Shown: positions 3,512-40,936 of the stretch, one piece after another
How the letters are laid out: each line of letters begins with the position of its first letter
Position numbering within the stretch: the first letter of the stretch is position 1
Virus record (IMG/VR): IMGVR_UViG_3300000301_000012
Span: 1 to 64,000 of that record
Direction: 5' to 3' (one strand)
DNA length: 64,000 nucleotides
From: a virus
Notes under the pieces: model-generated
Databases searched by the model: none
What the model was told of the DNA's origin: nothing
Seen by the model: only the letters and a program-made list of their open reading frames with translations
Program-made: the position numbers and the translations under genes

Positions 3512-3598
3512 TAGACATAGTGAAGGAATCGAACCCTCTCAAGTAAAATTTTACAGATTTTCTTTTTAACCAAAAAATTTTTGCTGTTACTATGTCTA
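3512..3598 (-). ncRNA. tRNA-like RNA (GUA anticodon-like loop, canonical T-arm, aberrant D region); member of the ACAGCAAUU-box family
   Basis: A 9-bp terminal stem TAGACATAG/CTATGTCTA is followed by the box TAACAGCAA and the hairpin AAAAT-CUGUAAA-ATTTT. T-arm is GAGGG-TTCGATT-CCTTC. No normal D-arm is present. Confidence 0.45.
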
Positions 3599-4099: not shown

Positions 4100-4159
4100 A
4101 AGACACCTTTGTTTCACAAATTGGCCATTTGTTGCAAGAAAAATTGCTGTTAGTGTCTT
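4100..4159 (-). ncRNA. acceptor-stem-like hairpin spacer with conserved box (family member)
   Basis: Terminal stem AAGACAC/GTGTCTT, then box TAACAGCAATT. Inner hairpins are GCAA-TTTTTC-TTGC and ACAAA-TGGCCAA-TTTGT. Confidence 0.4.
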
Positions 4160-6977: not shown

Positions 6978-7509
6978 TGGTGGGCCATCTTGGTATCGAA
7001 CCAAGCGAGTCACAATGACAGCGGCTTTTGGAGATAGAATTTAGATTTGAACTAAAAAGTTGCAAGTATTAAATCCTTGGTTATTGGAATTTGGGATAGT
7101 TCTTAAAACTATTCTTGAAAGATTTCCAGATTTACGAATCTCTTCAACGGGAATTACAAAAAGATTCTTCATATCATCAGCACAAAATAATAAATCTACT
7201 GGATGATTTAGTAAATTATCATAAACTTGTCCCTTTGTTCCGCCTTTGTTTACCAATGAAATCTCCTTATTTTTACTAGCTGTAAATTTACATTGTACTG
7301 TTTGAAAAATATCATCTTTTTCTACAACTAAATCATACCATTGTGTATCATTAATTGGTAAACTAACAGTATAACCATTGGAACCAAAATATGCGATAGC
7401 AAGACTTAATCCCGCTCTTCCTTTATCCCTATTATTTAATAATTGCATAACCCTCCTCCATTAGGATTCTACCACAGGCCGCCCCGTCTCCTTAACGGAA
7501 TACTGACCC
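6978..7509 (-). mobile_element. tRNA-shaped shell carrying a PD-(D/E)XK endonuclease gene (free-standing)
   Basis: The 5' end reads GGGTCAG-TA-TTCC-GTTAA-GGAG and the 3' end CTTGG-TTCGATA-CCAAG-ATGGCCC-A-CCA, with 6 of 7 acceptor pairs. The architecture matches 5747-6415. Confidence 0.4.
7041..7448 (-). CDS. PD-(D/E)XK homing-endonuclease-like protein (I-Ssp6803I-like family)
   Basis: 135 aa with GGAGGAGGG before the ATG. The translation KGRAGLSLAIAYFGSNGYTVSLPINDTQWYDLVVEKDDIFQTVQCKF matches the D...(D/E)xK pattern of the small PD-(D/E)XK intron endonucleases. Confidence 0.7.
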   Translation of the reverse strand: MQLLNNRDKGRAGLSLAIAYFGSNGYTVSLPINDTQWYDLVVEKDDIFQTVQCKFTASKNKEISLVNKGGTKGQVYDNLLNHPVDLLFCADDMKNLFVIPVEEIRKSGNLSRIVLRTIPNSNNQGFNTCNFLVQI

Positions 7510-7596
7510 ATATAATGGCGGTTGGAGCTTATTTTAATTCGACGTCCGCCAACTCGAATGAAGGTTGAGTTATTGTCATTATACCTACAATATGAC

Positions 7597-7672
7597 TGGT
7601 CACGCCATCGGGAATCGAACCCGAATTACGGGATTGAAAGCCCCGTTTCCTTACCGTTTAGAAGATGGCGCG
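7597..7672 (-). tRNA. tRNA-Glu(UUC)
   Basis: Acceptor CGCGCCA/TGGCGTG. Anticodon stem CGGGG/TCCCG with loop CUUUCAA. T-arm TCGGG-TTCGATT-CCCGA, A-CCA. Confidence 0.85.
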
Positions 7673-7906
7673 ATAGAAATAGGAGTGACCGCCCTCCTAT
7701 TGGGTCTGTTGTTCCACTCCTATCGGTAGTTTTTAAATGGTGTTACCGACACCGATTTGCGTCAGGAGGAGTATCCTCCCCAATGGAATTTGTTGATACA
7801 ATCATAGAACCATCTCCTTCCAATAAACGCTTTTTAAGACTTAGCGTGGTACGCATTATTAAGAGGCGTGCTAAGTTCATTTCTACAAGAGGAACTTCCC
7901 ACTTGG
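7673..7906 (-). ncRNA. unassigned structured spacer immediately 3' of the suppressor tRNA
   Basis: No credible ORF. Hairpins are AGGAG-TGACCGCC-CTCCT, GGAGGA-GTA-TCCTCC, CGGTA...TACCG and CTTAGC...GCTAAG enclosing GCGT-GGT-ACGC. Confidence 0.35.
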
Positions 7907-7982
7907 TGGCAGCGGTTCTCAGAATCGAACTGAGTCCATCGCTTTTAGAGAGCGAGGCGCTAAACCGTTACGCTAAACCGCA
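7907..7982 (-). tRNA. amber suppressor tRNA(CUA), Gln-like identity features
   Basis: Anticodon stem TCGCT/AGCGA with loop CUCUAAA; the anticodon is complementary to plus-strand tag at 7946-7948. D-arm GCGT-AACGGTTTA-GCGC and T-arm CTCAG-TTCGATT-CTGAG. Acceptor TGCGGTT/AACCGCT has a U1-U72 mismatch, G2-C71 and discriminator G. CCA is followed by a second CCA. Confidence 0.85.
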
Positions 7983-8014
7983 TCATTCAAGTTTTTGAAT
8001 GGAACTTTAACCAT

Positions 8015-8089
8015 TGGGTGCAGAGGAAGGATTCGAACCTTCGATCTCCGACTCATGAGGACGGTGAGATACCACTTCTCTACTCTGCA
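8015..8089 (-). tRNA. tRNA-Met(CAU) (elongator Met or Ile2; not resolvable by eye)
   Basis: Acceptor TGCAGAG/CTCTGCA, loop CUCAUGA, T-arm GAAGG-TTCGAAT-CCTTC, C-CCA. The anticodon stem has one U-U mismatch. Confidence 0.75.
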
Positions 8090-8097
8090 ATATAGAC

Positions 8098-8162
8098 AAG
8101 GCACATAAGTAACAATAATTTCTCACCCAAGAAAAGCTGTTATTAATTGCTGTTTGCGCCTT
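8098..8162 (-). ncRNA. acceptor-stem-like hairpin spacer with conserved box (family member)
   Basis: Terminal stem AAGGCGCA/TGTGCCTT (one G-U pair), followed by the box AACAGCAATT. Confidence 0.35.
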
Positions 8163-8214
8163 TCTTTATCTTACATAAATATTATATAAGATTTTTAAAA
8201 ACTTTTCAAATTTC

Positions 8215-8337
8215 AAGATACCGTTAGAATAATTATTGCCTTACCATTTAGGCGATTTCTAAAATGATTAGAAAGTAAGAATCGAACTTACAATAGATAA
8301 TTTCCAAAAAATAATTATTGGTTGCTGTAGGTATCTT
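8215..8337 (-). ncRNA. circularly permuted, capped tRNA-like RNA on a basal stem (YrlA/Y-RNA-like architecture)
   Basis: The minus strand reads: basal AAGATACC, box TACAGCAA, then ATTAT, CTATT, T-arm GTAAG-TTCGATT-CTTAC. The acceptor TTTCTAA-TCATT-TTAGAAA is closed by a loop. Then come TC, D-arm GCCT-AAATGGTA-AGGC, A, ATAAT and basal GGTATCTT. Confidence 0.55.
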
Positions 8338-8341
8338 TAAC

Positions 8342-8415
8342 TGGCAGAAAACGTCGGTGCTGCCCCGCTATTCCACCTCCCAAAGATGGCGTGTTACTGT
8401 TACACTACGTTCTCT
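8342..8415 (-). tRNA. tRNA-Pro(UGG)
   Basis: Acceptor (A)GAGAAC(G)/(C)GTTTTC(T). Anticodon stem CCATC/GGTGG with loop UUUGGGA. The T-arm is weak and non-canonical (loop GGCAGCA). It abuts tRNA-Ala. Confidence 0.7.
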
Positions 8416-8491
8416 TGGTGGAACTAAGGGGATTCGAACCCCTAACCCTCTGCGTGCAAAGCAGATGCGCTTCCAATTACGCTATAGCCCC
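8416..8491 (-). tRNA. tRNA-Ala(UGC)
   Basis: Acceptor GGGGCTA/TAGTTCC carries the G3-U70 alanine identity pair. Loop UUUGCAC, T-arm AGGGG-TTCGAAT-CCCCT, A-CCA. Confidence 0.9.
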
Positions 8492-8640
8492 ACGTTTAGC
8501 GGCCGTTGCCATCCGCCATTCGTATCCTCTTATGCAGCAACGAACCGAGGAATTATAGGTTTTTATTTGTAAGCTACCTACAAACTTACTGGTAGGAGTG
8601 GCGGGACTCGAACCCGCACGACCACAAGCCAGCTGATTTT

Positions 8641-9387
8641 CATACTACTCTATGTCACCATAGCCGCATTACTGCGTTGTAGTCTGGACTATGTCTTCAC
8701 CATATCTCTCAACTTAGGTGGTTGGTATATAGTCTCTACACATTTATTTGGTGCAGTTCTTTCCACGATAGGAATCTGTTAAAGCGTGACAATTTGGACA
8801 TAATAATTCATAATTTTCTATACTATTATTATGTCTATTGCCATCTTTATGATGTAACTCTAATGGAATTGGATTGCCAAGCCATTCGGTTAAACCGCAA
8901 TGTTCACACTTATGTTCTTTATACCCTTCTTCTAACAACTTTATTCTAACTTTGTTTGATTGAATATCTTTGCTATTTTCAAGATATTGAACTAATGTCA
9001 TTTTTTCTTTAACTTTAGAATAACCTTTTCCACTTTGATTTCCATCATACTTTAAGCCTAATCTCTCTAATACGCTATTAATAGTTTTAGGATTACATCC
9101 TAATTCTCTTGCCATATAAGCTTTAGATCTGTTCTCAGAAATCCATCGTTCAATTTCTGCCTTACGCTCTAAAATATCTGTTCTCATAAGTATCACTCCT
9201 TTTTTTTCTTTCTACTTATAAGTAGAAAAGGAACACACTTATTACAGAATTTTGATGCGTAATCCAAAATTTAGCACGGCGTTCTGTGTTTGCCTTCGCC
9301 GTTTAGCCAACTTCTACTTTCACAATTTCTTGTGAAGCACTCTCTATCCAAAAGATAGCACTTCTTTTTAGGAAGTGAAACACATTA
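8641..9387 (-). mobile_element. group I intron with HNH homing-endonuclease ORF
   Basis: The 5' splice site follows U and the 3' splice site follows G. The core element GGCTAAACGGCG...ACGCCGTGCTAAATT resembles the P4-P6/P7 region of phage group I introns such as T4 td. The insertion site is the classical tRNA-Leu(UAA) position. Confidence 0.7.
8744..9187 (-). CDS. HNH homing endonuclease (intron-encoded)
   Basis: The translation has CEHCGL...LELHHKDGNRHNNSIENYELLCPNCHA. AGGAGTG lies 6 nt before the ATG at 9187. Stop is TAA. Confidence 0.85.
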   Translation of the reverse strand: MRTDILERKAEIERWISENRSKAYMARELGCNPKTINSVLERLGLKYDGNQSGKGYSKVKEKMTLVQYLENSKDIQSNKVRIKLLEEGYKEHKCEHCGLTEWLGNPIPLELHHKDGNRHNNSIENYELLCPNCHALTDSYRGKNCTK

Positions 9388-9587
9388 AAGTCAGCAGCGT
9401 ATACCGATTTCGCCACACTCCCATAGCGTCCCTCTCGTTTCATAGCTCATTGAGCCGATTTTGCAGGCTTGGGACTGCCGATGGCACGATTAACGCTAAA
9501 TGCCGAACTGAGAGAGTGAAAGGAAAGGAAAAATCTCTCTCATTCAACATTAATATTATATCAAAATTTTTAGTTTATTTCAAATTT

Positions 9588-9722
9588 TTAATACTCATCA
9601 TCTAAAAAGTAGAATGGATCATCCTGCTCTTCATTAATCCAGAAAGCGCCGCCTGAAAAGCCATATTCGCCAAAAAAATCATCATACTGAATATCATCGA
9701 ATCCATCAAAGTAATCTCCCAT
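9588..9722 (-). CDS. small acidic hypothetical protein (44 aa)
   Basis: AAAGGAGC lies before the ATG at 9722 and the stop is TAA. The translation begins MGDYFDGFDDIQYDDFFGEYG. Confidence 0.35.
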   Translation of the reverse strand: MGDYFDGFDDIQYDDFFGEYGFSGGAFWINEEQDDPFYFLDDEY

Positions 9723-9768
9723 TTTTAAGCTCCTTTCTTAACTTTCTGTATATATTATACAGAATTTT

Positions 9769-9906
9769 TTATTCATTTTCAAATTTTTTCTTGTGTTTTT
9801 CTTTTCGAGAATATTTCTTTTTATTAGGTATAATCTTCGTAGAAGGATTGAGGCCACTCCAATCCTTACGAATCTTTTTAAAAGTTTCGTAAGTTTTATT
9901 CTCCAT
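9769..9906 (-). CDS. small basic hypothetical protein (45 aa)
   Basis: GGAAGGTGAG lies before the ATG at 9906 and the stop is TAA. Confidence 0.35.
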   Translation of the reverse strand: MENKTYETFKKIRKDWSGLNPSTKIIPNKKKYSRKEKHKKKFENE

Positions 9907-9951
9907 TTCTCTCACCTTCCTTTAATATTATATATAAAAATTAAAGAAAAC

Positions 9952-10269
9952 TCAAATTTTTTCCATCTCTTTTTTATCTTGAGTAATTGCTTCCGCACGT
10001 GTATTAAGAAGTTTAATGAACTGACTTACTTCTTTTGACTTCTTAAAGATGGCGACTGGATATTTATGACCTTTGCCGATAATTTCCGCACCCAATTCAT
10101 CGCGTGCCATACGAAGATATTGTGCATAGCTAAGACCCATTACTCGTGCAGGAATAATATTATAACTTCCTGTTGTATATTTTAAGTTGAAATTGTCAAA
10201 GTTGGCTCTAATTGTATAGTGTTCATTTTGGATAGGATACTCATCAAGATAAAAATATTCTTTTTTCAT
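9952..10269 (-). CDS. hypothetical protein
   Basis: Track ORF trimmed to the ATG that follows GGGAGGAG. Stop is TGA. Confidence 0.55.
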   Translation of the reverse strand: MKKEYFYLDEYPIQNEHYTIRANFDNFNLKYTTGSYNIIPARVMGLSYAQYLRMARDELGAEIIGKGHKYPVAIFKKSKEVSQFIKLLNTRAEAITQDKKEMEKI

Positions 10270-10574
10270 AGAGTCATCTCCTCCCAAAGTTCTTCAATTT
10301 CAATTTCTTCTTTTTGACTTAGTACACATAAGTCGCCATAATTCTCAAGTCCTCTAAACATTTTAAGAACATCTTCAAAAGGAGGAAGTTCATCACGACT
10401 AAATGTTTTCTTGGGTTTATTCTGCGCCGGCTGGTAATTTGGAATAATATACTTTTTTACTGTAGTAGGAGAGGGAGAACCACCCATAGCTCTACTAACA
10501 CCAGCATAAGTTCCAATTTTTAAATAAAGTTCATTAAGTTCAATTATTTGCTCTTGAGTAATTTTACTTGCCAT
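10266..10574 (-). CDS. hypothetical protein (possible HTH)
   Basis: Track ORF trimmed to the ATG that follows AAAGGTGAG. Stop is TGA. Confidence 0.55.
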   Translation of the reverse strand: MASKITQEQIIELNELYLKIGTYAGVSRAMGGSPSPTTVKKYIIPNYQPAQNKPKKTFSRDELPPFEDVLKMFRGLENYGDLCVLSQKEEIEIEELWEEMTL

Positions 10575-10622
10575 TTTTCTCACCTTTCAATAAATATTAT
10601 ATAAAAAATTTAAAAGAAAATC

Positions 10623-10648
10623 AAAAAAGGAGCTTCCGAAGAAGCTCC
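10623..10648 (-). terminator. rho-independent terminator (minus strand)
   Basis: Stem GGAGCTTC-CGAA-GAAGCTCC is followed by TTTTTT on the minus strand, just after the TAA of the vWA gene. Confidence 0.7.
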
Positions 10649-10654
10649 CTTATA

Positions 10655-12130
10655 TTAAACTTTACCAATCCAAACGCAATCATACATAGGATTATTAAGA
10701 GTTTCAATCATAACATCCCAACCAGTCTTACCGTTCAACGCAGCAGTCAGTTCTTTAAAAGAAGAAGGAGAACCGCCACTTACATGGATAAGATCAGGAC
10801 TATTACCCAAGAAAGTATTGCTACGAGCGTAAACATTCCAAAGAACTAGCTTAGGAAGATTAAAACCGTATTTAGCAAATTTCTTCCTCTGAATTTCTAC
10901 GAAATCATCATTAATATTATCTCTTTGAGAAATCCAGTCAATTTCCATATCAGAAATAACGATAATAGCTTTAGGCATTTCATCGTTAGGAATCTTATAG
11001 TCAATACCAGTTCTCAATACTAAATTGAAAGCTTCATTTAAATCAGTATTATATCCAAAATCCGTCCCTTCGGCCTTTACTATTTTTTGATAAATGTCGT
11101 CACTCTCTTTAAGAGTAATAAAATGAGGATTATCAGTAAAAGTCATGTAAAGATTATGGAAATAACCTTTATTTCTTTCAGCAAAATAAACTGCCAAACT
11201 AGTAGACATTGCCATAGGACGTCCAGACATAGAACCAGATACATCAGCCATAACAATATAGTTATTTTCACCTTCGACATAATTAGGAAGTCCATTCCAC
11301 TGAGCCTGGAGTAAATCTCTAGCTTGCATATTACAGCTACTAATTCTATCTGATTTTTCCTTAAGGTCGTAAGGATAAAGGACAGAACTATTGACTTTAG
11401 ATTCGCCAGTCTTTAAACCTGCAACATATTCATTAAATCTATCTTCATCATGTCTACGGAAAGCATCGGAATAATTCTTCATAGCATAAGAAGGAACATT
11501 ATCATAAATAATTTCATCCCAATTATTCGCAGACATATCTCTCTCAACAATTCGAATAGCATGACGCAACCTAGACAGAGCTTTACGATAAGTTCTGCTA
11601 GTCATACCCAACTCACCAATGGCGCGCCGTGCAAGATGAATAGTCTCAGGAGAAGAAGCATTTTCAGAAGGCATCCACTTACCCAGAAGACTTACAGAAT
11701 TGCCCTTAGCGCAATTAACTAGATCTTCTTTAAAGGTTTCCTTAATCAAATCCCACATTACCTTCTCGCATTTTGTTCCAGTAAGAACAAAAAGAGAATC
11801 CCAACGATTAAAATGGGGAATCAACTTAATATTATTCTCTACATATTTAGGCGCAATATTTGCCAAAGTTTTTAGACAAATACGGAAAGTTCTGCGCTCA
11901 CCTAAACCGCCACGAATGTTACCGGCATAAAATAACATCTTAGTAGTCAATTCAGGATTTTCTCTAAAAGAATTTGTAAACATTTCACTAATGTCTTTCA
12001 CACTTCGACTTCTCAAAGCACCGATGACACCAAAAAGAGATAAAACATTACTATCCAAACAGGAATAAGCGTTCATTCCATTTTCAGTAAACTTATCGGT
12101 AGTATTCTTAGCGGCTTGTGCAAAATTCAT
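10655..12130 (-). CDS. DUF2828-type protein with C-terminal vWA domain (Ro60/TROVE-like architecture)
   Basis: 491 aa. The N-terminal region reads TENGMNAY...LFYAGNIRGGLGERRTFR. The C-terminal vWA domain has the MIDAS motif DVSGSMSG. The TROVE-plus-vWA order matches Ro60. Confidence 0.75.
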   Translation of the reverse strand: MNFAQAAKNTTDKFTENGMNAYSCLDSNVLSLFGVIGALRSRSVKDISEMFTNSFRENPELTTKMLFYAGNIRGGLGERRTFRICLKTLANIAPKYVENNIKLIPHFNRWDSLFVLTGTKCEKVMWDLIKETFKEDLVNCAKGNSVSLLGKWMPSENASSPETIHLARRAIGELGMTSRTYRKALSRLRHAIRIVERDMSANNWDEIIYDNVPSYAMKNYSDAFRRHDEDRFNEYVAGLKTGESKVNSSVLYPYDLKEKSDRISSCNMQARDLLQAQWNGLPNYVEGENNYIVMADVSGSMSGRPMAMSTSLAVYFAERNKGYFHNLYMTFTDNPHFITLKESDDIYQKIVKAEGTDFGYNTDLNEAFNLVLRTGIDYKIPNDEMPKAIIVISDMEIDWISQRDNINDDFVEIQRKKFAKYGFNLPKLVLWNVYARSNTFLGNSPDLIHVSGGSPSSFKELTAALNGKTGWDVMIETLNNPMYDCVWIGKV

Positions 12131-12166
12131 TTGACATTTCTCCTTTTACTCAATAAAGTAAAAGCT

Positions 12167-12277
12167 AGACGCAATAGCTCCAAAGAAGGGACTCGAACCC
12201 TTAAATACTGAATTTAACGTTCAGAGCTTTTTCCTTTTAAGCTACTTCGGAAATCTCTCGCTTCGCTGTTCGCGTCT
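12167..12277 (-). ncRNA. stem-enclosed tRNA-like RNA directly upstream of the Ro60-like gene
   Basis: Basal pairing AGACGC (12277-12272 complement) with GCGTCT (12172-12167 complement). The box-like GAACAGCG follows the 5' arm. It encloses the cloverleaf at 12178-12251. Confidence 0.45.
12178..12251 (-). tRNA. tRNA-like cloverleaf with UUA in the anticodon position and G33 (probably not a decoding tRNA)
   Basis: Acceptor TCCGAAG/CTTTGGA and D-arm GCTT-AAAAGGAAA-AAGC. Anticodon stem CTGAA/TTCAG with loop CGUUAAA. T-arm AAGGG-TTCGAGT-CCCTT, no CCA. Confidence 0.5.
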
Positions 12278-12389
12278 TAACTTTTCTGTAATTATTATCT
12301 CAAGATTTTCATTATTTTTCAAATTTTAAAAAGAAAAGAGAAAAGTTGAAACTTTTCTCCTTTTAATTATAATTATTTTTCATTTTATA

Positions 12390-12842
12390 TTAGCCAACTG
12401 TGGTACTTTCTTCAATTATTACATTGCTTTCATCAACTATTTCTTCTGTTTGTGGTAATTGAATTGCTTCAACCGTAGTTGTAGTAGGAGTAGCTACGGT
12501 AGTTGTTTCGGGAATTGTATATTCTACAGTCATATTTTCACTTTTAATCCGAATAACATCAGTTGCATTTTTAACAAGACCAATTAATTCAGATACAGCA
12601 GAACTTCCACCCATAAAAACTAGCGCTGTTAGTATCTATCCCATTATAGATACCTCTGCTATTAAACCTAGTCCAACTAAAATATCCAGTGAAAAACAAA
12701 AAGCACAAGCAAAAGAAAGAATTGCGGAAATTCCAACTGTTATATATTTACTATAAGGAACATTAACCCATAATTCTTTAAGTCTATCTATTATATACCA
12801 AATAATAACGCTCATCGCGCCAACTAAAAATAACATATCCAT
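12390..12842 (-). CDS. holin-like membrane protein (1 in-frame TAG)
   Basis: Track ORFs 12636-12842 and 12390-12614 share a frame and are joined only by TAG at 12638-12636; I checked that no TAA or TGA lies between them. The N-terminal half has two hydrophobic segments. Stop is TAA. Confidence 0.6.
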
Positions 12843-12916
12843 TTATCATTACCTCCTAATAAAAAGTCGTTAATATTATTATAATCTCTAGTAAATTTGC
12901 TTTTACTTAAAAAATA

Positions 12917-12925
12917 TGATATAAT
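12917..12925 (+). promoter_or_regulatory. extended -10 promoter element (TGATATAAT)
   Basis: TGnTATAAT lies about 50 nt upstream of the first plus-strand gene at 12977. Confidence 0.4.
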
Positions 12926-12976
12926 ATAATAAAATGAATAAGTATATTTATTAAATAATTAAAAAGGAAGGATAAT

Positions 12977-13381
12977 ATGGATTATACACAAATAGAAGAA
13001 AAACATAATTTATATGATAGAATTATAACTACAGCAATGATTAATATGTATAGTTTAAGTAAAGAAAAAGAAGAAATAATTCTAAAAAATGTTGATCCTA
13101 ATAATATTAGTCATTTATTTATGATTGAAGTAGCTAAAATTGTTAATTTATATTGGGGATTTAAAATTAAGATTCAAACTTCTTTTTTTAATTTTAGAAA
13201 ACTTAAAAAACAATGTAGATTAAGTAAAAAAAATACAAAAAGAATTTCTCTTAAAAAAGAGAATTATGCAGCTATTAAAATTGAAAAATTCTTAAAAGAT
13301 ATTCAAAAAGCTTACGAAACAAAACCTAGTATCTTTAGGGATATTTATGATGCTTATTATGCCTGTAATGAGGTGATATGA
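12977..13381 (+). CDS. hypothetical protein
   Basis: 134-aa ORF with AAGGAAGG before the ATG and a TGA stop that overlaps the next start. Confidence 0.6.
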   Translation: MDYTQIEEKHNLYDRIITTAMINMYSLSKEKEEIILKNVDPNNISHLFMIEVAKIVNLYWGFKIKIQTSFFNFRKLKKQCRLSKKNTKRISLKKENYAAIKIEKFLKDIQKAYETKPSIFRDIYDAYYACNEVI

Positions 13382-23727: not shown

Positions 23728-24282
23728 ATGATAACTTTTCAAACTATTTGTAACTTAATTGTTCTAATTGGCGCGGCAGTTGTTGCTATTTCTAATATTT
23801 TAAAATTTTTTGGAAAACCAGTAAAACTTTTCAAAAAGAAAAAATAGAAATAGCAAGAAGAATATGAAAAACAAATGAAAGATATATTAGATAAATTAAT
23901 TCCTAATTATCTTATAGACCATGATCATGAAACTAGAAAAAAATATTTAGCTGATAGGTAGCAATATTTAATGGATATAAGTAATGAAGTTTATAATAAA
24001 TTTTAGGGAGAAATAGATAAAATAAAAAGCACAAGCGAAAGTAATGAAAAAGTTATAAAATTATTAAAGAAAAATATGGTAGACGTTTTAAGACAAAAAA
24101 TTGAAAATATCTATTATAGATATAAAGACGAACGAACGCTACCAATTTATGTACATGAAAATTTACAGGAGCTTTATAAAGATTATACCGAAGCAGGCGG
24201 TAATCATTATATTGGTAAATTGTATAATCGTATGTCAACTTGGAAAGTACTTGAAGATGATTATATAGATGAGAATGAATAA
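23728..24282 (+). CDS. membrane-anchored hypothetical protein (4 in-frame TAG)
   Basis: ATG at 23728 follows GAGAGAAAG. The N-terminus has a hydrophobic segment. Four TAG codons precede the track ORF 24076-24282 in the same frame. Confidence 0.6.
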
Positions 24283-24342: not shown

Positions 24343-25431
24343 ATGTATACCCAATTAGACGATATTCAAAAAGAGATAGTAACCTCTAATGCTAAAAATA
24401 TTTTAGTTATTGCTGGAAGCGGAAGTGGAAAAACAAGAGTTTTGACAGAGAGAATTAAATATCTTTTAGATACACAAGAAAATATTGAAGACATTGTTGC
24501 AATTACTTTTACTAACGCGGCCGCGGATGAAATTAAAGAAAGAATTGGTGAACAAGCTAACAATATTTATATTGGAACTATTCATGGTTATGCTAATCAA
24601 TTACTACTGCGCGCGGGAGTAGATACTAGTAAATTAATTAATGATGAACAATTTGATGAATTATTTGAAGAAATTCAAGACCATCCAGAAGCAATAAGAC
24701 ATATTTCTCATCTTTTAGTGGATGAATTTCAAGATATTGATTCAGACCAATATTTCTTTTTATTTGGTATGTTACAACCAGACAATTTCTTTGTTGTTGG
24801 TGATGATAACCAATGTATTTATAGTTTTAGAGGTAGTGATGTAACTTATTTCTTTGATTTGTATAATGATCCACTTGTAACAGTCTATAAGATGGAAAAC
24901 AACTATCGTACAGGATATAATATTCTTTCATTTGCTACAAAATTTCTAAGAACGCTCCAAAGAAAAATTCCAAAAAAAGTTTGTCCTAAGGTAGATTATG
25001 AAGGTACTGTTAAAAAAGTTCATGATGGTGGAATAGTTTCTCGTGATTTTACTCCTATTGCTGAAGAAATAAAAGAACAAAAAGATTACGGCAAATGGTT
25101 TATTTTAACTAGAACTAATAGTCAATTAGATAAAATAAAAAGTTTTTTAGAAGAAAAAAATATTCCTTGTGACACTTTTAAACGTGGTGACTTAACTACT
25201 TCTGATTTTAATAATAAAATGAGAGAAGATACTGTCAAAGTTTTAACTGCTCATTCTGCAAAAGGACTGGAGAATGACCATGTTGTTGTCTACGGAGTTA
25301 TTCCTAGGAATGATGAAGAAAAGCGATTAGCTTATGTTGCTGCTACAAGAGCTAAAAAAGAACTAATTTGGATTTATACAGACCATTTCTCAAAAAAGAA
25401 AAGAACTGAAAAAGTTTATAATTGGGAATAA
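24343..25431 (+). CDS. UvrD/PcrA-like superfamily 1 helicase
   Basis: Walker A motif AGSGSGKT, DEFQD box, and VLTAHSAKGLE...AATRAK near the C-terminus. Confidence 0.85.
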   Translation: MYTQLDDIQKEIVTSNAKNILVIAGSGSGKTRVLTERIKYLLDTQENIEDIVAITFTNAAADEIKERIGEQANNIYIGTIHGYANQLLLRAGVDTSKLINDEQFDELFEEIQDHPEAIRHISHLLVDEFQDIDSDQYFFLFGMLQPDNFFVVGDDNQCIYSFRGSDVTYFFDLYNDPLVTVYKMENNYRTGYNILSFATKFLRTLQRKIPKKVCPKVDYEGTVKKVHDGGIVSRDFTPIAEEIKEQKDYGKWFILTRTNSQLDKIKSFLEEKNIPCDTFKRGDLTTSDFNNKMREDTVKVLTAHSAKGLENDHVVVYGVIPRNDEEKRLAYVAATRAKKELIWIYTDHFSKKKRTEKVYNWE

Positions 25432-39590: not shown

Positions 39591-40936
39591 ATGACAAATC
39601 AGTATCCTGGTAGTTTACATAACCATACTGATTATTCTTAGTTCTAACTTTCGTTTGCGCGATTCAATAAATACGGTTGAATCTTTGGTTAATCGAGCAA
39701 TAGAACTTGGTCATAATGTTTTGGCAATAACCGAACATGAAACAATTAGTTCTGCCATTAAAGCAGAGAAAGTTTATAATAAAGTAAAAAAAGACCATCC
39801 TGATTTTAAATTAATTTTGGGTAATGAGATTTATCTCTGTAGAAATGGATTAAACGCTCAAAATTTTAATAGAGAAAATGACAGATATTATCACTTCATT
39901 CTTTTAGCTAAAGATGCTATTGGACATGAACAAATTAGAGAGATTTCTACCAGAGCTTGGAGCCACTCTTACATGGCGCGCGGTATGATGCGCGTTCCAA
40001 CTTATTATCAAGATTTATATGAAGTTATTGGCAGAAACCCTGGACATGTAATTGGAAGTACAGCTTGCTTAGGTGGCGCTCTACCTACTCAACTTTTAAA
40101 ATATAGAAAAAATCATAGTAAAGATTTATATAAAAAGATTTGTCTTTGGTGTAGACAGTTGAAAGATTTATTTAGAGAAGGTAATTTTTATTTAGAAATG
40201 CAACCCTCTCGAAATGAAGAACAAATTTATGTAAATAAAAATTTAATTAAGCTTTCAGAAGAATTAGATATTCCTTATATTATTACAAACGATTCTCATT
40301 ATCTTAAAAAAGAGGATATTAATATTCATCATGCTTTTCTTAATGCTCAAGGCGGCGACAGAGAAACGGAAAGTTTTTATGCTACTACTTATTTAATGAG
40401 TACAGAAGAAATTTATGAATATATGGAGCAAACTCTAGGGGAAGAGGTTCTTCAAAAAGCTTTTAATAATATTCTTAAAATTAAAGAAAAATGTGAAGAC
40501 TATTCTTTAATGCACCCATTGAGAATTCCATATTTACCCAAACATCCTTCAGAGCCAAATGAAGATTATTATAATGAGTTTGTTAAAGATATTCCTATAA
40601 TGGAATCTTTTAAAAATTCTGAGTATGATAGTGATAGACATTTGTTAAGTGTAGTTTTAAATAAAATAAAAAAAGATTCTCAGTATCAAAATAAGAGAGC
40701 TTATGATGAAATAAATATTTGCTTAAAAAGTGTTTGGGATTCTTCTGAGGCTTCTCGCACAAGATGGTCTGCATATTTAATGAATGTTAGAGATTATATC
40801 GAGATTGCTTGGGAGGACGGAGATACTCTTATTGGTCCTTCTCGTGGGTCTGGCGGTGGATTTATTTTATTAAATATTTTAGGTATTACACAAATTAACC
40901 CACTAAGAGAAAAAACTAAGTTATTTCCTTGGAGGT
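39591..40936 (+). CDS. dnaE: DNA polymerase III alpha (DnaE-type), exon 1, with a frame break near codon 17
   Basis: ATG at 39591 gives MTNQYPGSLHNHTDYS, the PHP HxH motif. That frame then hits TAG (39639) and TAA (39645). The body (NFRLRDSINTVE...AITEHE...) runs in the +1 frame, open from 39595, and ends at the intron. Confidence 0.75.

Follow-up and report, generated by a model that had tools for sequence, protein, structure and literature searches.

The window analysed here, 64,000 nucleotides of viral DNA (positions 1 to 64,000 of the IMG/VR virus record IMGVR_UViG_3300000301_000012), raises the question of what is made from a 123-nt element at 8215-8337 whose minus strand holds the parts of a tRNA in circularly permuted order. 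The first-pass annotation of this DNA had read the element as an RNA of the bacterial Y-RNA type, resembling YrlA and encoded 2.3 kb from a gene for a Ro60-like protein. Together, Ro60 and Y RNAs constitute a conserved system of RNA surveillance, and what it does in bacteria and viruses is still poorly understood. Our analysis indicates that the YrlA-like interpretation was essentially right. The element, a Y-RNA-like (YrlA-type) candidate noncoding RNA (ncRNA) with a circularly permuted tRNA-like domain, is probably a phage-encoded ncRNA of the Y-RNA type that is closest to YrlA and consists of two parts, one predicted to dock a protein and the other to present a tRNA-like surface. Its putative protein partner is presumed to be the 491-residue DUF2828/DUF7788 product of the gene at 10655-12130.

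Read 5′ to 3′ from 8337, the minus-strand RNA begins AAGAUACC-U-ACAGCAA-CCAAUAAUUAUUUUUUGG-AA-AUUAU-CUAUU-GUAAG-UUCGAUU-CUUAC-UUUCUAA-UCAUU-UUAGAAA-UC and continues after this UC with GCCU-AAAUGGUA-AGGC-A-AUAAU-UAUUCUAAC-GGUAUCUU, its 5′ region being AAGAUACCUACAGCAACC. The basal stem, conserved box, T arm, closed acceptor, D arm and anticodon-like helix that the first-pass annotation had listed were all present where it had placed them (Table 1), and its description of a tRNA body that is open at the anticodon and sealed where the acceptor would end was borne out by sequence, fold and covariation: the anticodon position opens into a three-way junction and the acceptor end is closed by a loop. 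The nucleotides that make tertiary contacts in tRNAs are in place as well, namely U8, A14, G18, G19, the T loop UUCGAUU and an A15:U48 Levitt pair. The RNA folds at -25.8 kcal/mol, compared with -14.5 +/- 2.8 kcal/mol for 200 shuffles, none of which was as good (z = -4.04). This minimum-energy fold retains the basal, T, acceptor and D helices and differs from the cloverleaf model, which scores -21.7 kcal/mol, only in the partner chosen by the palindromic AAUAAUUAUU; the cloverleaf is favoured by the comparative data.

The same RNA was found downstream of the DUF2828 gene, in the tRNA array, on contigs encoding proteins 95% and 60-61% identical to the 491-residue protein (L121:12151-12275, L122:12233-12358 and L123:11224-11348), and it persists in relatives with DUF2828 proteins only 54-61% identical, every helix there showing compensatory changes. 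Beside the 60-61% identical proteins the T stem changes from GUAAG/CUUAC to AUUGG/CCAAU, the acceptor hairpin from UUUCUAA/UUAGAAA to UACUUUA/UGAAGUA, and the basal stem from AAGAUACC/GGUAUCUU to AAGACGC/GCGUCUU. Basal-stem covariants among the relatives comprise, as DNA, AAGACGC/GCGTCTT, AAGGCAC/GTGCCTT and AGAGCGC/GCGCTCT. The small hairpin that follows the box is compensated to TCTG-loop-CAGA in L122 and L123, and across the family its sequence and length are variable.

Covariation was assessed with a covariance model, R1, built from ten sequences. The basal stem was left unpaired in R1 because gaps in the acceptor hairpin and in the 3′ strand of the basal stem had been wrongly placed by MAFFT, and it was tested apart, by enrichment and shuffling. 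R1 gives the RNA at 8337-8215 a score of 111 bits and recovered further members in viral contigs, in contigs of bacterial metagenome-assembled genomes (MAGs) and in cultured phages, among them copies in L001 and several other loci that a strict hand-written descriptor had overlooked. In an alignment of 26 R1 matches, 92.3% of cells form standard pairs, compared with 65.1% in shuffles and 38-46% when the partners are slid, and two-sided changes occur in 160 cells as against 46 in shuffles; the alignment was fitted to R1 and is thereby biased towards the structure, yet slid controls and raw alignments give the same result. Two-sided changes were seen in 5 of 5 pairs of the anticodon-like helix (81.5% of cells pair), 4 of 5 pairs of the T helix (100%), 7 of 7 pairs of the acceptor helix (90.5%) and 3 of 4 pairs of the D helix (97%). 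The Levitt 15:48 pair is A:U in 14 sequences, G:C in 10 and something else in two, one of which is probably a false positive from tandem tRNAs. Covariation, named by the first-pass annotation as a test of the permuted cloverleaf, was found in all four of these helices and at 15:48. The acceptor hairpin measures 7 bp throughout the family, its two strands pairing with each other in all members, and no conserved CCA was found in the acceptor loops of the family.

Published YrlA RNAs are circularly permuted tRNAs with their parts in the order variable loop, T arm, acceptor stem and D arm, a closed acceptor, and a stem in which the 5′ end pairs with the 3′ end (PMC4201824; bioRxiv 10.1101/312249). 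The RNA at 8337-8215 has the same succession of variable loop, T arm, closed acceptor and D arm, with an anticodon-like stem flanking it, and the covariation described above supports a YrlA-like architecture. It likewise combines a terminal stem made from its 5′ and 3′ ends, a conserved 5′ motif and a permuted tRNA mimic with a closed acceptor, and its Levitt pair alternates between A15:U48 and G15:C48 across the family, as Chen et al. reported for YrlA (PMC4201824). YrlA is encoded within about 4 kb of a TROVE Ro60 gene on the same strand; the gene on the same strand 2.3 kb from the window RNA is for a protein with a Ro60-like predicted fold and no TROVE match in Pfam. Several Y-type RNAs per genome are common to both. 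The resemblance extends to the Rfam model of YrlA, RF02553, which matched family members at 49.6 bits (L141), 39.8 bits (phage LeBron, just downstream of the DUF2828 gene gp53) and 39.0 bits (L154), with E values from 4e-8 to 5e-5. These scores are below the gathering score of 69 bits, yet highly significant, and the threshold is also missed by an accepted phage YrlA: in our positive control, mycobacteriophage Bxz1, gp220 is a true TROVE and vWA_Ro60 protein and the RF02553 match just upstream of its gene reaches 32.5 bits. In the alignment of L141 to the model, UGCUUAGGGAGC-CGUGUGUC lies against the YrlA consensus AUGCuuggGgaaCUAcgccuGUu; the segment UGCUUAGGGAGC...GUGUC aligns with the consensus, and the ACAGCAA box occupies the position of GNCGAA in the consensus. 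The two RNAs differ in that the acceptor hairpin is always 7 bp here but 6 bp in Salmonella, in that T-stem sequences vary freely here but are nearly invariant in YrlA, and in that an unpaired ACAGCAA follows the stem here whereas GNCGAAN0-1G lies within the stem in YrlA.

The unit conserved among these RNAs is not the tRNA mimic itself, but a stem and box, (U)AAGRYRC, 0-3 nt, ACAGCAA, a variable insert and GYRYCUU(G), which carries at its apex a tRNA body, permuted or of normal order, a lone T arm or a plain hairpin. The window carries five such modules (the RNA at 8337-8215 and four others, Table 1), all on the minus strand and within the tRNA region, and its closest relative (L121) keeps all five, the third module showing wobble-type differences from its orthologue. 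Multiple modules per genome have a parallel in the YrlA/YrlB pairs of bacteria (PMC4201824). No Rfam family matched the stem-and-box modules, and no description of RNA partners of DUF2828 proteins was found in Rfam 15 or the searchable literature. Two members outside the window extend the range of forms. The module at L179:9576-9690 encloses a tRNA body of normal order (D, anticodon-like and T arms) in which the basal stem replaces the acceptor stem, and the family therefore uses permuted and unpermuted tRNA mimics. At L001:5392-5913, a contig without tRNA genes has five modules in tandem directly upstream of a DUF2828 gene, so that these RNAs are independent of a tRNA array.

The 491-residue protein matches the Pfam families DUF2828 (3e-34) and DUF7788 (4e-27), with a weak match to VWA_2, and PHROG 850, annotated "RNA-binding protein". 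Its relatives number thousands in metagenomes, and homologues occur in 706 GenBank phage records. An AlphaFold2 model, with a predicted local distance difference test score (pLDDT) of 80, has a helical N-terminal part (residues 28-280) and a domain of the von Willebrand factor A (vWA) type (residues 291-485). The ten best matches of this model in the PDB by Foldseek were all Ro60 proteins (E = 1e-6 to 8e-5, about 500 columns, template modelling (TM) scores of 0.4-0.54), including those of Thermus phage phiLo (9KOP and 9L5Y), Xenopus (1YVR and 1YVP) and Deinococcus (2NVO) and the Ro60 chains of pre-5S rRNA complexes (9NEP, 9NF8 and 9NFA), and the matches ranked after them span the vWA domain only. 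The protein has a DVSGSM motif of the MIDAS (metal-ion-dependent adhesion site) type, also present in the Ro60 of Bxz1. Searching the PDB by sequence gave nothing meaningful for the protein, Ro60 emerging from the fold comparison only, and the label "Ro60-like" is thus supported for the predicted fold and not for the sequence family. Of the earlier description of a Ro60-like TROVE/vWA gene, the 2.3-kb distance stood, the gene being upstream on the same strand, while the assignment to TROVE gave way to DUF2828/DUF7788.

The module and the DUF2828 gene are coupled in genomes well beyond the window. Across a set of 72 DUF2828 loci (1.05 Mb), ACAGCAA boxes numbered 266 on the strand of the gene and 73 on the other; a perfect stem, 7 bp or longer, accompanied 164 of the 266 but 14 of the 73, compared with about 17% of permuted boxes. 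At least one module was present on the gene strand in 66 of the 72 loci, which include those of Felix O1, LeBron, Listeria AG20 and Bacillus Thrax2. When no preselection for pairing was made, a perfect 7-nt complement was found for 67%, as against 10% for shuffled 7-mers. The 144 distinct modules have 109 distinct 5′ strands, and in 82 of them there is a G-U pair, whose counterpart on the other strand would not match; the diversity of the strands and the G-U pairs both indicate that pairing takes place at the RNA level. A repeat at the DNA level was rejected on the strand bias and the G-U pairs.

A reciprocal search with the RNA pattern alone (one fixed stem variant plus the box) led back to the protein. 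A DUF2828 gene was present in 45 of 87 viral loci, giving 47 same-strand pairs and none on opposite strands, and in 75 of 91 contigs of bacterial genomes, giving 78 same-strand pairs and again none opposite. The control set consisted of 119 tRNA-rich phage loci returned by an unspecific scan of viral contigs for T-arm sequences, and two of these have a DUF2828 gene. In the four cultured phages examined, the modules stand beside the DUF2828 gene or in the adjoining tRNA array: Felix O1 has four, Bacillus phage Thrax2 six, Listeria phage AG20 three, and mycobacteriophage LeBron two together with a tRNA-like copy whose box is GCAGCAA. The RNAs predicted for Felix O1 (AF320576.1) occupy 23872-23938, 24039-24096, 24493-24560 and 24580-24704, of which the last is tRNA-like, and those predicted for LeBron (NC_014461.1) occupy 40203-40256, 40270-40389 and 40405-40450. 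DUF2828 genes adjoin tRNA arrays in several phages. Comparison with GenBank phage DNA gave no match in a near search of 7000-13000 and chance matches only in a distant search of the element. Pairs of module and DUF2828 gene are also common in Clostridia MAGs and occur in Helicobacter pullorum, Verrucomicrobiales, Saccharibacteria and others (L281-L371).

By analogy with Ro60 and its Y RNAs (PMC4201824; bioRxiv 10.1101/312249; PMC12135203), the two parts of the RNA may do different work. The basal stem (consensus U-AAGRYRC ... GYRYCUU-G) and the unpaired ACAGCAA, presumed to be a protein-recognition motif, would be where the DUF2828/DUF7788 product of 10655-12130 docks. The tRNA body, opened at the site of the anticodon loop and closed at the acceptor, would as in YrlA offer a tRNA-shaped surface that recruits or occupies a second factor, for which an exoribonuclease, a tRNA-processing or repair enzyme and a host nuclease targeting tRNAs are candidates. 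The RNA probably is excised as a discrete species from a polycistronic tRNA precursor by tRNA-processing enzymes. No promoter of its own was found in the window; it comes after a tRNA-Ala and a weak tRNA-like sequence, and in relatives a tRNA-Met begins 7-8 nt after it, and these features therefore suggest release by such enzymes. The YrlA of M. smegmatis, with a 7-bp acceptor-like stem, is a substrate of RNase P (PMC4201824), and the acceptor hairpin of the same length could make the window RNA one too.

For the infection itself, a role in RNA repair or surveillance may be envisaged from the genes annotated "tRNA splicing ligase" and "RNA ligase" that adjoin the DUF2828 gene of Listeria phage AG20 and from LeBron, for which a polynucleotide kinase and an RNA ligase have been reported (PMC13148394). 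A role in counter-defence is suggested by Bas63 gp130, a Ro60-like protein of a Felixounavirus that is reported to counter the Ppl defence system (bioRxiv 10.1101/2024.10.10.617714) and that we infer from Felix O1 ORF86 to belong to DUF2828.

Several results weigh against reading the element as a YrlA-type RNA served by a Ro60-like protein. The Rfam check that the first-pass annotation proposed succeeded for the homologues (39-50 bits, below the gathering score) but failed for the window copy, neither RF02553 nor Y_RNA matching in 8100-8800 even at E <= 10; this copy is AT-rich and diverged (its D arm is GCCU/AGGC, not GCUC/GAGC), and therefore has no direct RF02553 match. The motif GNCGAAN0-1G that defines YrlA is absent near the 5′ end of the window RNA, where ACAGCAA, outside the stem, has only the core GC..AA in common with it. 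The partner of YrlA is a TROVE and vWA_Ro60 protein, whereas Pfam matched neither domain in the 491-residue protein. The similarity of its predicted fold to Ro60 is moderate at the TM scores and pLDDT given above, and an hhalign alignment of DUF2828 against the Ro60 of Bxz1 gave a short match in the MIDAS region with a probability of 14%, which is nearly uninformative. The minimum-energy fold of the window copy swaps the 5-bp anticodon-like stem for an alternative pairing. Finally, 74 of the 78 bacterial modules lie just upstream of the DUF2828 gene, at a median of about 200 nt, as a purely cis-acting leader would.

This last arrangement, together with the one window module that stands in the gene leader between a promoter-like site and a hairpin overlapping the ribosome-binding site, would be expected if the stem and box acted in cis, either in the DUF2828 mRNA, as a leader or a site of autoregulation, or in tRNA operons, as a processing signal, and if the tRNA-like copy had no function in trans. 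We regard this explanation as unlikely, since the gene is 2.3 kb upstream of the RNA at 8337-8215 and separated from it by other open reading frames (ORFs) and tRNAs, phages have 2-8 modules dispersed through their tRNA arrays, 18 of the 47 modules in viral contigs are downstream of the gene, and a leader would not readily account for a complete tRNA mimic whose tertiary pairs are conserved. The upstream position does not discriminate, as bacterial Y RNAs are also found upstream of rsr on the same strand (PMC4201824). It is improbable, too, that the tRNA-like RNA acts without the DUF2828 protein, for example as a decoy or inhibitor of host nucleases or of enzymes that recognise tRNAs. Its location in a tRNA array would suit such a role, as would the family-wide 7-bp acceptor, the length that makes M. 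smegmatis YrlA a substrate of RNase P with CCA addition (PMC4201824), but the stem and box also occur in modules without any tRNA-like part and are coupled strongly, and on one strand, to DUF2828 genes; the RNA lacks an anticodon loop, and no CCA is conserved among the acceptor loops.

The element could in principle also have arisen by chance or decay, from halves of two tRNA genes (the 3′ half of the first, the 5′ half of the second) lying side by side, or be a permuted tRNA gene of the red-algal type. In the permuted tRNA genes of Cyanidioschyzon and in the two-piece (permuted) transfer-messenger RNA (tmRNA), the 3′ half precedes the 5′ half and the acceptor strands are joined by a loop, and these mature to functional molecules with free acceptor ends. 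The window RNA has the same order and the same loop-joined acceptor strands, but it has neither an anticodon loop nor a tag reading frame. Its place in a tRNA cluster and a weak partial match to the Rfam tRNA model (17.3 bits) are in keeping with an origin of this kind, which we nevertheless hold to be highly improbable, as it is contradicted by covariation: the RNA is kept in the distant relatives with compensatory changes in every helix and mutually pairing acceptor strands in all members, ARAGORN makes no call, and the conserved box and basal stem are without counterpart in tRNA genes. A pair of tRNA pseudogenes or a permuted tRNA gene was rejected on the covariation, and a real tRNA on the missing ARAGORN call, the RF00005 score of 17.3 bits against a gathering score of 29, the closed acceptor and the lack of a 7-nt anticodon loop. 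A tmRNA was likewise rejected, the match to the permuted tmRNA model being weak (16 bits) and outside the element at 8355-8443.

With the Y-RNA-type reading preferred, the closest parallels are with systems in mycobacteria and phages. The YrlA/YrlB RNAs of M. smegmatis share with the window RNAs the 7-bp acceptor-like stem and the occurrence of a tRNA-like RNA alongside hairpin RNAs of simpler form, some of which have just a T arm; both sets adjoin the protein gene, and processing from one precursor is reported for M. smegmatis (PMC4201824) and would probably take place in the window RNAs too. Thermus phage phiLo (PMC12135203) also encodes a Ro60-type protein with its own adjacent small RNAs, Yrl1 and Yrl2, and its two Ro60 structures are the two best structural matches of the window protein; its RNAs differ in having been identified by a CGAA motif in an internal bulge and are not described as tRNA-like. 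The gene for Bas63 gp130 lies directly upstream of the phage tRNA array, and Felix O1 has the same layout with its four modules between tRNAs. The authors of the Bas63 study speculated that some "tRNA genes" are Y RNAs, and identified no RNA (bioRxiv 10.1101/2024.10.10.617714); their guess becomes directly testable for phages of the Felix O1 type. YrlA-type RNAs beside TROVE Ro60 genes in bacteria and some phages are already known, as are "Ro-like" annotations of phage DUF2828 proteins. We would call it an even chance that DUF2828/DUF7788 proteins and RNAs with an AAGRYRC stem and ACAGCAA box form a second, undescribed ribonucleoprotein system of the Ro60/Y-RNA type, widespread in bacterial genomes and in phages (those like Felix O1 and Listeria A511, mycobacteriophages of cluster L, and Bacillus and gut phages), in which one protein would work with interchangeable RNAs (tRNA mimic, T arm only or plain hairpin) and which in phages would protect or repair the tRNA supply or counter host defences. 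DUF2828 proteins are annotated as "RNA-binding" or "Ro-like" in hundreds of phage genomes with no known RNA, for which candidates are now supplied, and these candidates, with their defined recognition module, occur in tractable cultured phages (Felix O1, LeBron, Listeria AG20 and Bacillus Thrax2).

Table 1. Positions in the window of the parts of the tRNA-like RNA, the other stem-and-box modules, the DUF2828 gene and promoter-like sites (sequences as DNA, minus strand)
Feature	Position	Strand	Remarks
Basal stem, 5′ strand AAGATACC	8330-8337	minus	partner 8215-8222
Box ACAGCAA, unpaired, directly 3′ of basal 5′ strand	8322-8328 (with preceding T, 8329-8322)	minus	invariant in alignments
Small hairpin CCAA-loop-TTGG, between box and tRNA-like domain	8304-8321	minus	compensated in relatives
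Anticodon-stem-like helix, 3′ strand ATTAT	8297-8301	minus	partner 8232-8236
Variable loop CTATT, 5 nt	8292-8296	minus	final base is position 48 of the Levitt pair; A15:U48 here
T arm GTAAG-TTCGATT-CTTAC	8275-8291	minus	helix pairs in 100% of cells
Acceptor-like 7-bp hairpin TTTCTAA-TCATT-TTAGAAA, loop TCATT, then TC	8256-8274	minus	covariation
D arm GCCT-AAATGGTA-AGGC, after TC (positions 8 and 9)	8238-8253	minus	G18 and G19 present
Anticodon-stem-like helix, 5′ strand ATAAT	8232-8236	minus	partner 8297-8301
Basal stem, 3′ strand GGTATCTT	8215-8222	minus	partner 8330-8337
Gene for 491-residue DUF2828/DUF7788 protein, Ro60-like predicted fold	10655-12130	minus	Pfam, PHROG, AlphaFold2, Foldseek
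Second module AGACGCGA...TTGCGTCT, box ACAGCGA, leader of DUF2828 gene	12167-12277	minus	encloses ARAGORN "tRNA-Stop(tta)"
Third module, 65-nt plain hairpin AAGGCGCA-AACAGCAA-...-TGTGCCTT	8098-8162	minus	orthologue L121:12328-12393
Fourth module, 60-nt plain hairpin AAGACACT-AACAGCAA-...-GGTGTCTT	4100-4159	minus	orthologue L121:15149-15208
Fifth module, 85 nt, T arm only, AGACATAGT-AACAGCAA-...-GAGGGTTCGATTCCTTC-ACTATGTCT	3513-3597	minus	orthologue L121:15776-15859
Sigma-70-like promoter TTGAAA-17-TATAAT	8181-8209	minus	11/12 matches, consensus match only
Promoter-like site	12322->12294	minus	upstream of leader module 12277-12167

The surroundings of these features provided some further observations. 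The promoter-like site at 8181-8209 starts right after the RNA at 8337-8215 and before the third module. Directly upstream of the RNA, a marginal tRNA match (8346-8414, minus strand, 29.6 bits) is without a proper T arm and has no ARAGORN call. Right after the leader module, a hairpin CUUUUACU...AGUAAAAG (12130-12166, minus strand), conserved in L121-L127, L141 and L145, overlaps the Shine-Dalgarno sequence (AAGGAG) of the DUF2828 gene and is a possible site of translational control. The "tRNA-Stop (tta)" call inside the leader module (12177-12251, minus strand) has G at position 33, where tRNAs have U, and its orthologues read gta with A33 in L122 and tta with G33 in L123; it may be tRNA-like cargo and not an ochre suppressor. 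This call illustrates a caution for annotation, as some "tRNA" and "suppressor tRNA" calls in phage arrays may be parts of tRNA-like RNAs.

Other observations concern the tRNA region and its neighbours. A tRNA with anticodon cta (ARAGORN "Pyl") at 7907-7982 on the minus strand would read amber and is kept in L121, L122, L123 and L154; it may be a sign of TAG recoding in this group of phages. At about 8640-8590 on the minus strand, just downstream of an HNH endonuclease ORF, lie a T arm and an acceptor 3′ strand ending in ACCA, for which no matching 5′ acceptor strand was found. The models for tmRNA and for group I introns also match weakly there (8590-8700 and 8744-9196, minus strand), and this could be an intron-interrupted or fragmented tRNA gene. 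In the closest relatives, genes for an RVT_1 reverse transcriptase or a target protein of the Mtd_N type a few kb from the DUF2828 gene (L121:528-1580, L122:2227-3330 and L123:3557-4048) suggest a diversity-generating retroelement.

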